Virus genome (UHGV): UHGV-0356621
Length of the DNA stretch: 43,895 nucleotides
Source of the DNA: a virus
Strand: one strand, 5' to 3'
In this document: piece by piece, positions 19,589-26,274 of the stretch
How the letters are laid out: the number at the start of each line of letters is the position of its first letter
Position numbering within the stretch: position 1 is the stretch's first letter
The notes under the pieces: model-generated
What the model saw: only the letters and a program-made list of their open reading frames with translations
Database searches by the model: none
Told to the model about the DNA's origin: nothing
Made by a program: the position numbers and the translations under genes

Positions 19589-20362
19589 TCAGGCGAGATA
19601 AGAATGAGGGTTGGGGAAGACGATTTCTTTGTAACAGCGGCAGTTCGGGAGCTCGCCAGCGTGACCGGTCATGCCGTCAAGCGTTGGAGGTCGGCCCCAT
19701 TCGACAAACTTCCCTTCCATCTCTCGATGAGAATGCCGGACGTCGCCATCTTCGACTGTACGCCAGATATAACCATTCGAGCCGATTGACAGCGCACGCG
19801 CCTGATCCAGCGCGCCGGTTGCGCGTCCAAGCTCGGTACGGGCAATAAGGTTCGCTCGTGAGCGTGACACGTCACCGGAAGCAGCTATCTCTTTCGCGAA
19901 TGGCTCAGCGCGGCCACCAGTTACTACAGCCTCGATGGCCTTGTTCTGAATGTCATACACCCGATCGGCGGCCTCAAGAGGCAGAGATTTGATGTACTTA
20001 ATTTGCTCGGCGACGATGGATTTCATCACCTGGCCTACCGGGGCGCGGTCGACCATGTTGCGTAGTTCTGCGCTGATGTTCCGACTGTGCTGACGCCACT
20101 GCTTTTCATTCTGGCGCGCAATGTCGGCGGTGAAGCTCTCAGCAACCTTAGTCGCCCAGGGGGTGATGATTTCGCTGTAGCGCTCCAGCGCATCCATTAT
20201 TTCGGTGACGCTATCGTTTGAACCATCGTAGCGCCCATTTACGATATCCCCGACCGCCCGCGCTATCTGCCGTAGGCTCGTTCGATATCGGATCTCCGCC
20301 TGTCGGCTCTGGCGGTTTGTCGCCAAGTTCGCCGATGCCTGGCGGCGCTTCGTCTTCGGCAT
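19589..20362 (-). CDS. Head morphogenesis protein (Mu F / SPP1 gp7-like minor head protein)
   Basis: 257 aa following the portal, as in Mu gpF; ATG at 20362 with GAGGA RBS; overlaps the portal ORF end by about 150 bp. Confidence 0.55.
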   Translation of the reverse strand: MPKTKRRQASANLATNRQSRQAEIRYRTSLRQIARAVGDIVNGRYDGSNDSVTEIMDALERYSEIITPWATKVAESFTADIARQNEKQWRQHSRNISAELRNMVDRAPVGQVMKSIVAEQIKYIKSLPLEAADRVYDIQNKAIEAVVTGGRAEPFAKEIAASGDVSRSRANLIARTELGRATGALDQARALSIGSNGYIWRTVEDGDVRHSHREMEGKFVEWGRPPTLDGMTGHAGELPNCRCYKEIVFPNPHSYLA

Positions 20363-21680
20363 TCTCGATATCCTCGTCGGTAATGGATGCCCCGATACCG
20401 GTGACGTCAGAGTTTTCGCGCAGGTCGGTCATCGCCGCCTTACGCGTCATCAATCCGTCGCCCAGCGCGGTGCTGATCGCGTTGGTGGTGTTTACGGCCA
20501 CCGTTGAGCGGTCAACGTCAGACATTTGCCATAGCGGGTTAAACTCAAACGTGAAATCGTCCGGCAGCGGCTTACCGAGTTCCGAGCGGTGCATAATGTC
20601 CAGTATCCGGCGCATCGGCAGCCGTAAGCGGCGCTCCTGCAATGAGCTCACCCGGTCGTAATAGTTGGCGAGGTCTGCGTCACCAGTAGAGAAGCCTTTC
20701 GGGGATTGACCGAACAGGCGCACCAGCGGGATACCAACGGCACCGCTGATCTGCTCAGCGAACTGCGAAAGAATGTCATCCAGACCGCTGAAGCTGTACT
20801 GGTGGGTTTCGAACTTATCCCGCGAGTCCATGAGCGTCATACCTTCATTGCTCTGGAACTGGCGGATCAGGTCGATGTTCTTCAGCAGCGCCTCGAACGC
20901 CGGGCCGCCAAGCGCGATAAGCTCGCGCAGCTTCTCCACGCTGTAGGTGCGCAGATGCGCTTTGTAGACCAGCTGCGCCGCGCCGACAGTGGCGCTGTCG
21001 AACGCAGTAAGCCGATCCCAGATACGCTCTACAACCGACATTCCCCATTCGTTTTCGGTCATCTTCTGCTGGAATGGCAGCGTCACCCCGTCGAAGCGAA
21101 TCAGGCGGCTGTGATGGATGCGCCAGGCCGGGATGCCCGTTGCAGTGGTCACCACGTCGTAAAACTCAGGTTTGCCGAGATCTGGCCCCATCTCTTTAAT
21201 GCGGCGGGTCAGGACCGGGTTAATCATCCAGCGGTCGAGCGGGAGAATGCCCTTAAACTTGCCTTCTCCAATGGTTTCGAGCCGCAACGGGGTCATTGGT
21301 GCCTGCCCCTCAATCATGATGAAGCCGACCGCGCCGCCGTAGAGACGCGACCATTTCAGCACGTCGTTCAGCGCATCCCAGATCTGCAACTCATCCAGCT
21401 GCGCTTCGAGGGTGCCACGGCCTTTCGCGTCAATCTCCGAAGTGATGCGAATGCCTTTCCGGGTCATATCGTCCGGGATGGCGTCGACCGCTTCGCCAAT
21501 AACCCACGATCCGCGATATGACCATTCCACCAGCATGCGGTTGCGGCTGGTGAAGTTCGCCCGGTAGGTTGATGCTGAATGCTGGTTAGGCGTCTGCATC
21601 CCCACGCGGGCGACAAAGTTCTCATAGCCATCAGCGGTGGCCTGCGCCGTTCGCTGAGAGGCTTGCTTGTTTCGTGCCAT
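20211..21680 (-). CDS. Portal protein
   Basis: About 490 aa immediately downstream of the large terminase with an ATGA overlap; GGGAGG RBS before the ATG at 21680 (track start 21707 is TTG). Confidence 0.75.
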   Translation of the reverse strand: MARNKQASQRTAQATADGYENFVARVGMQTPNQHSASTYRANFTSRNRMLVEWSYRGSWVIGEAVDAIPDDMTRKGIRITSEIDAKGRGTLEAQLDELQIWDALNDVLKWSRLYGGAVGFIMIEGQAPMTPLRLETIGEGKFKGILPLDRWMINPVLTRRIKEMGPDLGKPEFYDVVTTATGIPAWRIHHSRLIRFDGVTLPFQQKMTENEWGMSVVERIWDRLTAFDSATVGAAQLVYKAHLRTYSVEKLRELIALGGPAFEALLKNIDLIRQFQSNEGMTLMDSRDKFETHQYSFSGLDDILSQFAEQISGAVGIPLVRLFGQSPKGFSTGDADLANYYDRVSSLQERRLRLPMRRILDIMHRSELGKPLPDDFTFEFNPLWQMSDVDRSTVAVNTTNAISTALGDGLMTRKAAMTDLRENSDVTGIGASITDEDIENAEDEAPPGIGELGDKPPEPTGGDPISNEPTADSAGGRGYRKWALRWFKR

Positions 21681-23122
21681 CAGGCTTGCCTCCCGAGCAA
21701 TTCCCAAATATCCATTGTTGTATCGGTCGGCGCGAACGCCATTATGAAAGCGTCGGCAATGTTAGGTGAGGGGATATCGCGCTTAGCCAAATCTTTCTTG
21801 CTTTCAACCATAACCCTACCGTTACGATCAAAGTCTCGGTGCGGGGTCGTCAGCTCAAGCTTTAGTTTCTCCAGGTGCGGGCACGATGAATCGATACTTA
21901 TCAACTCATCAACAGGATATTCCTCTCCATTTTTCACCGCGTTGAACGTATTACGAAAGCGATCAGCTACCAGCCACCATGCCTGGGCTTTCAGATTGGC
22001 AAAGAAGTCTTTATTCGGAATGCCGTTATATTCAGAATCTGGCTCGTTCACACCAGCGCCAGCATTGAAGCGTTGATAATTAACTGGTCGTGAATAAGGA
22101 TTTTCACGTCGTCTGTCTTCGTTAATTTCCGAGAATTTAGCACCAGCAGAAGCGCCAACACCAATGGAGTCATAAACGATATCAGCACTTCTCTCTGTGG
22201 CTGCCTGATATGCCCGCTGGCAGCTTTTAAGAAGCTCGTCTTCTTTTGCCTTCCATTCATCAGCCCAATACACAACGGAGCCATGACGATAAACATTGGA
22301 GCACTTATCCGCACCGCTATCGGCAACGTCGAAGCCTATTCGCTTTCGTCCGTTTGGCTCAAAACCAAGCACCTTATGGGCATCTATTGCAGCCTCAATC
22401 CACGAAAGTTTAATAATTGCCGCGTCATCATCAGATTCGGGAACCCCCATATAAACGTGGTCAAACCCCTCCGGATCACGACGCTTTGCAGCCGAGATAA
22501 CCTTAAGCATGGTGTCTGAGAGGAATGGGTTTTCGTCGTAATTGATTTTTCTCACCAACGTATCTTCTGGTGGATCAACAACGAAATTACGCCATACAAA
22601 GTCAGTCACCAGACCAGGGTTAAAAATAAACCAGCATTCAGATCCGCTTTTACGAATGGTTGGTTCCAGTATCTTCCACTGGTATTCCGTTAGTGCATGG
22701 GCTTCTTCAAGCCACAAAACGCTGATACCTTCCAGGGATTTAATTTCTTCGATATTGCGCCATAAACCGTAAAACACGAATTCTGAGCCAGTGACCCGGT
22801 TGATAATTTTATTATTCAGAATTCGGAAGCGATGCCGCAGCCCAAACCGTTCAATCTGTATTTTGAGCAGGGTATAAACCGACTCTTCGATTTTGTTCTG
22901 AATTTGACGTGCGCAACAGAAACGCAGGTTGTATTTATTTGCCAGAAAGACAGCAAACCCAGCAGCATCCCATGACTTTGACGATGAGCGCCCACCAAAA
23001 AGTACTTTATTTCGAGCCTGTGTCGTCCAGAAGTTCCTTAGAGCCGGATTCAGGGTCGGTTTGGATGTCAGAGTAGAAGTCATTAAGGTCACGATCTCCA
23101 TTACCGTCATCAACGCCAGCAT
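21680..23122 (-). CDS. terL: Terminase large subunit
   Basis: Walker A GGRSSSKS near the N-terminus, nuclease-type acidic residues towards the C-terminus, about 480 aa; several candidate ATGs (23122, 23110, 23101, 23083). Confidence 0.85.
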   Translation of the reverse strand: MLALMTVMEIVTLMTSTLTSKPTLNPALRNFWTTQARNKVLFGGRSSSKSWDAAGFAVFLANKYNLRFCCARQIQNKIEESVYTLLKIQIERFGLRHRFRILNNKIINRVTGSEFVFYGLWRNIEEIKSLEGISVLWLEEAHALTEYQWKILEPTIRKSGSECWFIFNPGLVTDFVWRNFVVDPPEDTLVRKINYDENPFLSDTMLKVISAAKRRDPEGFDHVYMGVPESDDDAAIIKLSWIEAAIDAHKVLGFEPNGRKRIGFDVADSGADKCSNVYRHGSVVYWADEWKAKEDELLKSCQRAYQAATERSADIVYDSIGVGASAGAKFSEINEDRRRENPYSRPVNYQRFNAGAGVNEPDSEYNGIPNKDFFANLKAQAWWLVADRFRNTFNAVKNGEEYPVDELISIDSSCPHLEKLKLELTTPHRDFDRNGRVMVESKKDLAKRDIPSPNIADAFIMAFAPTDTTMDIWELLGRQA

Positions 23123-23762
23123 CACGACGAAGGCGATCCGCTTCCAGAGACACTTTGTCAGTGGAGGCGAGCCGATGCTCTATAGATGCCTTTGTGAATT
23201 CCAGCGACTCAATGCGGGCCGTGTTACGGTGCATGGCCTTTTCAGCAGAGGAAATCAGCGAGTGGAGTTCCTTCGCTTTGTCATCATCGGCCAGCTCCAG
23301 CTCAGCCTGCCAGCGCCCGATATTCTCCGCCGCCGTCAGATTCGCCGCGCGCAGCCAGAACAACTCATCGTCGAGCGTGAGCAGCTTCGCGTCTTCGGTG
23401 ATTGCGTCAGAGAGCAGCATCCTGCGACCGTAGCCGCCGTGCTTCAATGCGTTCTGATTTCCGGGTCTGGAATTATAATGAGCGCGTTTCGTTTCTGGTG
23501 AGTTTGATGGTTTTGCGACTTCGCAGTTATCCACTAAGCCCGCTGGTGGCTTACTCTTTGCCACTTTCTCCTTTTGCGAATTCGCAGTTTTATTCGCACT
23601 TTTCTTTTGCGAATTCGCACTACCATTCGCAATTTTGATATAGCGCTTTGCAGTCGAGTAATTCAGTCCCTGCGCTTCGCACCATTCTTTGGGGGAAATG
23701 CCGGTTTTGGCATGTTCGGACAGGAACCGTTGCTGAAGCTCGCCCCAGTCCGGCTTTGCCAT
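23007..23762 (-). CDS. terS: Terminase small subunit
   Basis: N-terminal HTH (KEWCEAQGLNYSTAKRYI), central NQNALKHGGYG motif seen in small terminase subunits, sits directly upstream of terL; AGAGGAAA RBS. Confidence 0.6.
   Translation of the reverse strand: MAKPDWGELQQRFLSEHAKTGISPKEWCEAQGLNYSTAKRYIKIANGSANSQKKSANKTANSQKEKVAKSKPPAGLVDNCEVAKPSNSPETKRAHYNSRPGNQNALKHGGYGRRMLLSDAITEDAKLLTLDDELFWLRAANLTAAENIGRWQAELELADDDKAKELHSLISSAEKAMHRNTARIESLEFTKASIEHRLASTDKVSLEADRLRRDAGVDDGNGDRDLNDFYSDIQTDPESGSKELLDDTGSK
23565..23640. repeat. Short direct repeats TTGCGAATTCGCA (x2) plus ATTCGCA (x2) inside the 5' part of terS
   Basis: Read directly from the sequence; encodes the repetitive ANSQKKSANKTANSQ segment. 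Confidence 0.7.
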
Positions 23763-23819
23763 GAATATTTCCTCTTAATGACATTATCGAAGCCCCTCAG
23801 TGAAGAGCTTCTGTAATGG

Positions 23820-24077
23820 CTACTTCGTTTTTGCTTCCGCTCTTTTACGGCGGCGCTCTTCTTTCTTCTCGGCGTTTGCCATGTCCATGAATGCCTGCAT
23901 GATCGAGTTCCTCATCATGTAACTGACAAAGTGATGATTGACGCAGCCGTTGAGACGGAGTTGCTCGCCAAACTGATCAACCGAGGCCAGCACTTCCATC
24001 ATGCCCTTCTCGCCTTTCATGAACTCTGAGAAGTCGCGCCCCGCTCTGGAGGCGCATTCAATGACACGATCACTCAT
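23820..24077 (-). CDS. Hypothetical protein
   Basis: 85-aa ORF upstream of terS; ATG verified; ATGA overlap with the KilA-N gene stop. Confidence 0.45.
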   Translation of the reverse strand: MSDRVIECASRAGRDFSEFMKGEKGMMEVLASVDQFGEQLRLNGCVNHHFVSYMMRNSIMQAFMDMANAEKKEERRRKRAEAKTK

Positions 24078-24571
24078 CCCGGAAGCCCGGGGATCGTAAT
24101 CTGCAGCTGGTTAGCCAGGGAGTTAATCTCAGCGACCAACACTGGCTTCGTATAGCGCCATGCCGCCAGCCCTTGTCCGCAGAAACTCGCCATGTCTTTC
24201 TTCTGGTCAAACTCATGACATTTCATGTTGAGCTGCGCACTTAAGCTGTTGCGATGCTGAAGTTCTCCGGTGAAGTAGTCATCGAGGACTTTATAGGCCG
24301 CGTACTTGAACCCGGGGTTTAACCAAGCCGCATAATCGTAAGCAACAAACTTCCCGCCATATGTTCCACCGTGTACACCGCGCTCAGTAAAAACCACAGA
24401 TTCGTGGTTTTTCTCCAGCTCGGCTAAGAACTCTTTGGTCTGCTTGTTTCGCAGGTAGTGGTAAGGCGATTCAGATTCACTTTTGCCACTGGCTTTCCAC
24501 ATATCGGTGAGGCAGATCATGCCGTCTTCCCCGACACGGATTGGTTGATTGAAGAGGGTTAATGATTTCAT
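24074..24571 (-). CDS. KilA-N domain protein
   Basis: N-terminus MKSLTLFNQPIRVGEDGMICLTDMWKASGK fits the KilA-N/APSES-type pattern; ATG at 24571. Confidence 0.5.
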   Translation of the reverse strand: MKSLTLFNQPIRVGEDGMICLTDMWKASGKSESESPYHYLRNKQTKEFLAELEKNHESVVFTERGVHGGTYGGKFVAYDYAAWLNPGFKYAAYKVLDDYFTGELQHRNSLSAQLNMKCHEFDQKKDMASFCGQGLAAWRYTKPVLVAEINSLANQLQITIPGLPG

Positions 24572-24718
24572 TTCGCTGATACCTTTTGGTGGTTGAGCCT
24601 GTTCTCGTAGATACGGGCAGCCCAAGAGCGGTCAGCGTTACCACTGCCCTATCTCAAGCTCTACCCCGAAAGGCTCTTGGTTGATATGCGCACGAGAATG
24701 CGCGTGTTTACTTCAGGC

Positions 24719-26199: not shown

Positions 26200-26274
26200 T
26201 GGCGGGACAGGAAGGATTCGAACCTTCGACCATTCGGTTAACAGCCGAACGCACAACCGCTGTGCTTCTGACCC
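26200..26274 (-). tRNA. tRNA-like gene, putative tRNA-Asn (anticodon GUU), 75 nt with encoded CCA
   Basis: Minus-strand cloverleaf by eye: acceptor GGGTCAG/CTGTCCC (one T:T mismatch), D stem GCAC/GTGC, anticodon stem TTCGG/CCGAA with loop CTGTTAA, T arm GAAGG-TTCGAAT-CCTTC, discriminator G, CCA. Position 8 is A rather than the usual U. Confidence 0.55.

Follow-up and report, generated by a model that had tools for sequence, protein, structure and literature searches.

A candidate TerS-binding packaging array inside the small terminase gene of virus genome UHGV-0356621

The small terminase gene (terS) of UHGV virus genome UHGV-0356621 contains a cluster of TGCGAA repeats, positioned directly after the part of the gene that codes for the N-terminal domain. 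The cluster (23514-23631) is probably a binding array for the phage's own small terminase subunit (TerS) and, as such, the recognition part of the packaging initiation site. Positions refer throughout to the window, the whole 43,895-nucleotide stretch of DNA that was analyzed, which reads in reverse as a temperate myovirus-like genome. A preliminary description of this DNA had proposed a candidate TerS recognition (pac) site at this place, and comparative evidence supports that proposal: the array is constrained as DNA, it is unique in the window, its repeated hexamer covaries with the putative recognition helix of TerS, and it is inherited as a module together with the N-terminal domain. Below, we describe the array, the constraints that act on it and its counterparts across the terS family, and then weigh other explanations for it.

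The repeat array in terS

Two exact plus-strand copies of the 13-bp sequence TTGCGAATTCGCA are found at 23574-23586 and 23607-23619. Their 12-bp core, TGCGAATTCGCA, is a perfect palindrome present in exactly two copies in the 43.9-kb window, where 0.02 copies are expected and two were reached in 0 of 100 shuffles. The shorter motif ATTCGCA starts on the plus strand at 23580, 23592, 23613 and 23625; two of these four copies are the right halves of the palindromes, and the other two (23592-98 and 23625-31) are isolated. The preliminary description had reported the two 13-bp copies and two further ATTCGCA copies in the 5' part of terS, and all four are borne out. The extent it gave, 23565-23640, covers these four sites and misses a fifth (23514-25). 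Three further points go beyond that description, namely the fifth site itself, the encoding of a peptide repeat by the same DNA, and the occurrence of such arrays as a general feature of the terS family.

Sites A to E are lettered here along terS, which is read from the minus strand. Site A (23625-23631, minus strand) is a half-site, TGCGAAT, at terS nucleotides 132-138 within codons I44-A45-N46. Site B (23608-23619) is a perfect palindrome, TGCGAATTCGCA, at terS nucleotides 144-155, spanning codons x48-A-N-S-Q52. Site C (23592-23598, minus strand) is again a half-site TGCGAAT, at terS nucleotides 165-171, and site D (23575-23586) is the second perfect palindrome, at terS nucleotides 177-188 and codons x59-A-N-S-Q63. 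Site E, seen on the plus strand as TTGCGACTTCGCA at 23513-23525 with one mismatch, is an imperfect palindrome (23514-23525; TGCGAAGTCGCA on the coding strand) at terS nucleotides 238-249, where it is read in another frame as C-E-V-A. Counting both perfect palindromes, the isolated half-sites A and C and the imperfect palindrome E, the array holds about eight TGCGAA half-sites in 118 bp (23514-23631). Sites A to D correspond to a 33-bp tandem duplication (23571-23603 and 23604-23636) with 85% identity between its units.

All sites fall within terS codons 44-83, and the repeats code for the first residues of a linker that is predicted to be disordered. The coding strand of the array reads ATT-GCG-AAT-GGT-AGT-GCG-AAT-TCG-CAA-AAG-AAA-AGT-GCG-AAT-AAA-ACT-GCG-AAT-TCG-CAA, so that codons 44-63 give I-A-N-G-S-A-N-S-Q-K-K-S-A-N-K-T-A-N-S-Q and the DNA repeat doubles as a peptide repeat (ANSQK). 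Exact TGCGAA/TTCGCA hexamers number seven inside 120 bp at the array and at most two per 120 bp elsewhere in the window; in 2000 random placements of the hexamers, the mean maximum was 2.0 and never exceeded four. The array is therefore the sole cluster of its kind in 43.9 kb and lies inside terS, a location and uniqueness consistent with a pac site. Spacings between half-sites are 12, 21, 12 and 61 bp in the window and are irregular in a sister group with TGCGCA arrays, and given these irregular spacings we make no claim about helical phasing.

Each palindrome (23575-23586 and 23608-23619) also includes the EcoRI site GAATTC, and the proposed packaging signal would therefore be cleaved by EcoRI-type restriction systems. 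The inner 10 bp of the palindromes, GCGAATTCGC, are identical to the core of the Dickerson-Drew dodecamer, CGCGAATTCGCG.

Constraint on the DNA rather than the peptide

The comparison drew on 80 loci of relatives in IMG/VR (amino-acid identity 55-96%), from which 67 distinct N-terminal sequences were codon-aligned. Within the repeats, codons that could vary silently do not. The Ala codon is GCG in every case at site B (60/60), site D (65/65) and half-site C (64/64), and the Ser codon, which is six-fold degenerate, is TCG in 62/62 sequences at site B and 66/66 at site D (half-site C has no corresponding codon). The Asn codon is likewise AAT at sites B (54/54) and D (64/64), and varies at half-site C. 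Ala and Ser codons in the part of the gene coding for the helix-turn-helix (HTH)-like N-terminal domain occur in three or four synonymous forms each.

The codons that precede the palindromes vary in the amino acid they encode and keep their third base. Ahead of site B, seven amino acids are found (G, S, N, A, T, R and V) with a third-base T in 66/66 sequences, and ahead of site D, five (S, T, N, A and G) with a T in 65/66. This third-base T is the first base of TGCGAATTCGCA. At site C, the preceding base is T in 60/65 sequences and the seventh base is variable, for which reason the conserved unit is taken to be the hexamer TGCGAA. Site A is the least conserved site; it is kept in lineages that encode I-A-N, and lineages that encode V-T-x have ACGAAT or ACGACT in its place.

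Fitch parsimony on a neighbor-joining tree of 61 sequences gave 0.21 changes per site in the palindromes versus 4.7 in the intervening spacer. Because the adjoining spacer had time to change, the invariance is specific to the palindrome positions. Seven of the eight third-codon positions within the palindromes show zero changes, including all four in site D, compared with a mean of 3.6 changes at third positions of the HTH-coding part (Mann-Whitney p = 4e-4).

Site E adds a comparison between reading frames. TGCGAA is present in the site E area of about 40% of relatives, and in two of them (L008 and L072) site E, at terS nucleotides 238-249, is a perfect TGCGAATTCGCA that encodes C-E-F-A by way of a Val-to-Phe difference. 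The same 12-mer in two frames of one gene is difficult to account for by selection on the protein. Taken together, these patterns indicate that selection acts on the DNA of the array independently of the protein it encodes; the DNA is conserved beyond coding need, as is characteristic of a pac site embedded in a gene.

Family-wide arrays and covariation with helix 3

In AlphaFold2 models, TerS begins with a three-helix, HTH-like domain (amino acids 1-43; 23634-23762, minus strand) whose helices span residues 6-20, 24-31 and 35-41/43 with a predicted local distance difference test score (pLDDT) of about 80-89. Helix 3 corresponds to Y35-K43 (STAKRYIK). In other terS lineages, the stretch directly after the N-terminal domain also holds an array, built from a different hexamer. 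Klebsiella phage ST11-VIM1phi8.2 and 48 distinct relatives from IMG/VR contain five to six copies of TGCGCA, distributed over all three reading frames with variable spacers and including one 9-nucleotide copy-number variant. Klebsiella phage ST512-KPC3phi13.5 and its relatives contain three to ten copies of (G)TACGCA in two frames and 12-nucleotide steps. A Sepvirinae phage of the Shiga toxin (Stx) type, Escherichia phage vB_EcoP_phi367 (L084), has four copies of GATCAT at 12-bp spacing. Pasteurella phage Pmp11, with a TerS 34% identical to that of the window, has nine copies of TGCGAA in a different layout, encoded within C-E, T-A-N and T-A-K.

Several of these arrays have features of their own. 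The copy number of (G)TACGCA differs among otherwise near-identical phages (L086 and L170-L249; terS nucleotides ~130-300), each 12-nucleotide unit adding K-S-T-Q to the linker, and one locus (L187) reaches ten copies and a TerS of 270 amino acids. Inverted copies (GCGTAC) also occur inside this array. In phi367, terS starts at L084:1203 and the array lies at L084 ~1338-1390, a homologous position, where AAAATCGATCATGAAATTGATCATAAAACCGATCATGAAATCGATCATGAC encodes IDHEIDHKTDHEIDH. The phi367 TerS is 33% identical to the window TerS, and each GATCAT contains a Dam GATC site. The GATCAT array is a candidate pac site of Stx-converting phages.

The hexamer found in the array follows the sequence of helix 3. 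All 70 distinct sequences with a helix 3 of the form xAKRYIK or a close variant have TGCGAA arrays (70/70), all 52 distinct sequences with TARRYIK have TGCGCA arrays (52/52), and the one sequence with TARTRIK has four copies of GATCAT plus two of TGCGCA. Among distant members, the arrays differ in layout and defy alignment, and yet the hexamer is the same; it is thus not merely inherited sequence, and this points to a functional coupling between hexamer identity and helix 3. Tentatively, we suggest a further step, in which helix 3 would specify the hexamer (K39 for TGCGAA, R for TGCGCA and TARTRIK for GATCAT) and the cognate array, in every case placed in the linker-coding DNA directly behind the domain, would form with it a self-contained, exchangeable cassette of reader and address.

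Modular inheritance and distribution

Comparisons of whole genes suggest that the array is exchanged together with the N-terminal domain. ST512-KPC3phi13.5 encodes a TerL (large terminase subunit) 90.6% identical to that of the window and the same TerS tail, yet its N-terminal domain is unrelated and its array consists of GTACGCA. More generally, terS nucleotides 601-756 are 84% identical in Klebsiella phages with this TerL but a different N-terminal domain. The reverse combination is found in phage RothC (L002), which has TerS amino acids 1-225, array included, in common with the window and an unrelated TerL of the Terminase_6N type. Yersinia and Providencia phages share only terS nucleotides 1 to ~190, which hold the domain and the array, and have other cores.

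TerS can be divided accordingly into three exchangeable parts: a helical core sits between the DNA-binding domain, which comes with its array, and the C-terminal tail. These combinations indicate that the tail goes with the type of TerL and the N-terminal domain with the array, and that reader and site, which fit within ~260 bp, are swapped between phages as one specificity module. We also searched species-representative genomes (596 Gb) for a composite pattern consisting of the palindrome, 9 nucleotides, TGCGAA, 6 nucleotides and the palindrome. It occurs four times, in Kosakonia, Serratia, Raoultella and Trabulsiella, each time within a terS homologue and at the corresponding place.

A model for packaging initiation

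If the array is bound by TerS, packaging could begin as follows. TerS would oligomerize through its central helical hairpin, and its N-terminal three-helix domains, carried on long flexible linkers, would read TGCGAA half-sites with helix 3 (STAKRYIK). Several domains may bind the array cooperatively and thereby mark concatemeric DNA. The C-terminal tail of TerS would then bring in the PBSX-type TerL, and a cut nearby would start headful packaging. If P22 and SPP1 are a guide, packaging would proceed from terS through terL towards the portal gene, that is, towards lower window coordinates. What is inferred here comprises binding by TerS, its oligomeric state, the place and direction of the cut, and headful rather than cos packaging.

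A headful (pac) start is probable from the type of TerL, and we hold it with somewhat less confidence than the binding array itself. The best-studied relatives of the window TerL are those of the Pbunaviruses, at about 55% identity, and these phages are reported to package by the headful mechanism and to have circularly permuted genomes (PMC12390725). The ends of deposited records (RothC and RothD, Chronis, Mulock, RCIP0034 and phi367) were considered as possible termini and rejected as annotators' choices; KlebPhaCol genomes, for instance, are 'zeroed' by convention (10.1101/2024.12.02.626457).

Several observations weigh against a TerS-read pac array. With no more than ~10-120 bp between helix 3 and the array, some of the covariation could come from two old haplotypes in linkage. 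The HTH assignment is that of an AlphaFold2 model; the N-terminal domain alone has HTH DNA-binding domains as its top Foldseek matches, all at E >= 0.7 and none significant, and Pfam gives no match. Reports on Pbunavirus genome ends are contradictory, earlier ones disagreeing with the headful assignment (PMC12390725). PhageTerm calls phage RothD, which shares the terS type of the window, 'COS (5')' (10.1101/2024.12.02.626457, KlebPhaCol supplementary table). Finally, the TerS HTH of Bacillus phage SF6 is reported to have low sequence specificity towards its pac repeats (PMC4737164), and repeats near terS are therefore not always what is read.

Alternative explanations

The most serious alternative is itself a variant of TerS recognition. 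The array could be a TerS site of the cosB kind, at which TerL is positioned at a nearby cos nick to produce defined cohesive ends and unit-length packaging. The RothD call would fit this reading, as its TerS has amino acids 1-225 in common with the window; in cos phages, pairs of HTH domains in the small terminase recognize repeated elements (PMC4737164), and palindromic sites would suit HTH dimers. We nevertheless consider it unlikely. End type is set by TerL, and the RothD TerL is unrelated (Terminase_6N). The near-twin RothC was called 'Undetermined; permutated', both libraries being Nextera (10.1101/2024.12.02.626457), so the two calls conflict with each other and concern a TerL other than the window's type, which is PBSX-like with relatives reported as headful. 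An array that serves as an operator, for TerS autoregulation or for another phage or host regulator with no role in starting packaging, is less probable still. An intragenic array of HTH sites could serve as a roadblock, and the SF6/SPP1 authors suggest that TerS binding could enable viral gene regulation too (PMC4737164). However, no promoter-like site is present in the array, and promoter and terminator scans of 22900-24700 stayed at chance level; lineage-specific covariation with a TerS domain speaks against a host factor, and the upstream genes (KilA-N and hkbL-like) occur in phages with other terS types. A regulatory role would in any case be compatible with a role in packaging.

Two other explanations are, in our view, very improbable and about equally so. 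The repeat could be a by-product of a 33-bp duplication in a gene where only the peptide is selected, as a basic (A-N-S-Q-K)n arm beside the HTH. The array DNA does encode ANGSANSQKKS and ANKTANSQKEK, A-N-S-Q-K is kept at the amino-acid level in most relatives, and copy number varies in sister lineages, as slippage would give. Selection on such an arm leaves aside the synonymous sites of four-fold and six-fold degenerate codons, which are invariant solely inside the palindromes, the third-base T retained by codons that vary in amino acid, and the recurrence of the same hexamer or 12-mer in other frames and other peptides; moreover, the region is predicted to be disordered and the linker beyond the array diverges freely. 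Alternatively, the palindromes could fold as hairpins in mRNA or single-stranded DNA and regulate the translation or transcription of terS and terL. A 96-nucleotide RNA from the array folds at -27 kcal/mol (z = -5.45 versus shuffles), and sites B and D are able to form an 11-12-bp stem. Yet RNAalifold on 45 sequences gave a covariation term of +0.09 and detected no pair with compensatory changes, and uncompensated changes are present, including T to A in site B of AKSQ lineages and others in L020, L023/L051 and L055. Sister lineages have irregular direct-repeat arrays, and a hairpin needs no palindrome in each arm and leaves the covariation with helix 3 unexplained. We thus favor the array as a TerS-binding site for packaging initiation.

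The terS gene, its product and neighboring genes

terS (23007-23762, minus strand) encodes a protein of 251 amino acids that matches PHROG 370 'terminase small subunit' (E = 6.6e-74) and lies directly upstream of the terL and portal genes, and match and position together identify it as TerS. Searches of the open reading frame (ORF) against Pfam and NCBIfam matched no TerS model; the only match was a sub-threshold one to the IS66 TnpA HTH. A search of the PDB with the TerS sequence gave nothing relevant. TerS has 2628 homologues at E <= 1e-5, most of them labelled 'hypothetical protein'.

The predicted protein consists of the DNA-binding domain (residues 1-43), a disordered basic linker (~44-126), a helical-hairpin core (130-214) and a C-terminal tail. 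In the AlphaFold2 model, all residues of 47-106 and 117-126 except residue 73 have a pLDDT below 50, and the hairpin is confident with a pLDDT of about 90. This build, with a three-helix domain, a disordered linker and a helical hairpin, matches that of a usual TerS, as far as the model goes. When the full-length model was used in Foldseek, it retrieved generic helical hairpins (ESCRT-III and BAR domains), none of them significant. The part tied to the TerL type is the C-terminal tail (~amino acids 214-251; 23010-23123, minus strand), whose coding DNA overlaps the start of terL.

The terL gene (21680-23125 as the maximal ORF, minus strand) encodes a large subunit of the PBSX / Terminase_3 type (PF04466, 8.4e-38; TIGR01547, 9e-42). 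By homology with the PGAP annotation in a relative (L001), its start is likely at 23083. A portal protein gene of the Phage_portal_3 / DUF1073 type follows (20211-21707, minus strand; PF06381, 1.5e-104). Just upstream of terS, two genes at 23820-24625 (minus strand) encode an 85-residue PHROG 875 (hkbL-like) protein and a KilA-N/ORF11CD3 protein. Phages with other terS types (HK620, Stx phages and Salmonella phages) carry both genes at ~91% DNA identity, which places a mosaic junction between these genes and terS. Further away, a tRNA-Asn (GTT) lies at 26200-26274 (minus strand), upstream of the lysis genes, as found by ARAGORN and Rfam; the Rfam scan of the window returned only a tRNA. In an E. 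coli relative (L001), the antiterminator Q and holin genes are separated by tRNA-Asn and tRNA-Thr.

Significance of a possibly readable packaging address

The way in which pac-type small terminases pick viral DNA is still described as unclear (PMC4737164), and the HTH-bearing TerS studied in most depth, that of SF6, is reported to be little sequence-specific. The kind of signal proposed here is known from SPP1, P22, P1 and lambda, and for this terS family and its named relatives, searches of the accessible literature did not turn up any account of a pac site. Phage ES18, whose pac site is said not to be known, was considered as a possible relative and set aside, as its TerS is different (143 amino acids).

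Natural variation in the family provides a direct handle on recognition, as TGCGAA and TGCGCA arrays belong to TerS variants that differ by one residue in helix 3. The family is large, with members in prophages of E. coli, Klebsiella, Citrobacter, Enterobacter and Salmonella, and with distant members in Stx-converting phages. Once the packaging start is known, it could be predicted where lateral transduction from these prophages originates and in which direction it runs, and the annotation of terS genes would improve. If the recognition code proposed above is true, a pac-type TerS would read bases directly, unlike the conformational-selection model for SF6/SPP1, and packaging sites, together with the starts of lateral and generalized transduction, would become predictable for thousands of enterobacterial prophages, Stx-converting ones included.

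Comparison with known packaging systems

Lambda cosB contains R-elements that are bound by the winged HTH of gpNu1, and it lies outside the ORF and includes an IHF site. Like the window array, these are repeated sites that are read by the N-terminal HTH of a small terminase and adjoin its gene, with a close linkage of reader and site. Lambda is a cos phage with a gpA-type TerL, whereas the window TerL is of the Terminase_3/PBSX type, and because of this difference in TerL the array does not correspond to a lambda-type cosB.

In SPP1, direct repeats of the pac site extend into the start of terS, and the TerS of SPP1/SF6 (G1P) has an N-terminal HTH on an oligomeric ring (PMC4737164). The pac site of these phages (pacL-pacC-pacR) shows no sequence relation to the window array, which is located wholly inside the ORF and downstream of the HTH-coding part. 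Within 600 bp upstream of the ATG at 79 loci, a search confined to TGCGAA/TTCGCA found these hexamers essentially absent, with at most five half-sites per 30-bp bin versus up to 146 inside the array. As no upstream repeat set was found, the array does not follow the SPP1 layout. A second difference lies in recognition: the SF6 HTH is described as little specific (PMC4737164), whereas the hexamer seen here changes along with helix 3, suggesting that the window TerS reads bases specifically. If confirmed, the covariation between helix 3 and hexamer would constitute a notable difference from SF6.

The likeness to phage P1 is one of layout. Both small terminase genes hold several hexamer copies close together in their 5' part. 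The P1 pac site consists of TGATCA/G hexamers inside pacA that are controlled by Dam methylation, and the Stx-phage branch of the window terS family carries its own GATC-containing hexamer, GATCAT, in four copies. Protein family and motif both differ between P1 and the window, and no Dam control is expected at the window array because its motif has no GATC.

The P22 pac site stands alone, an asymmetric sequence of ~22 bp midway along its gene. It differs from the window array in having no repeats placed after an N-terminal HTH, and the P22 TerS family is unrelated to that of the window. It too is found inside terS (gene 3), and wobble mutations can attenuate it (PMC11260489). The window array resembles P22 pac in this respect: lying within the terS reading frame, it would be constrained both as DNA and as code.

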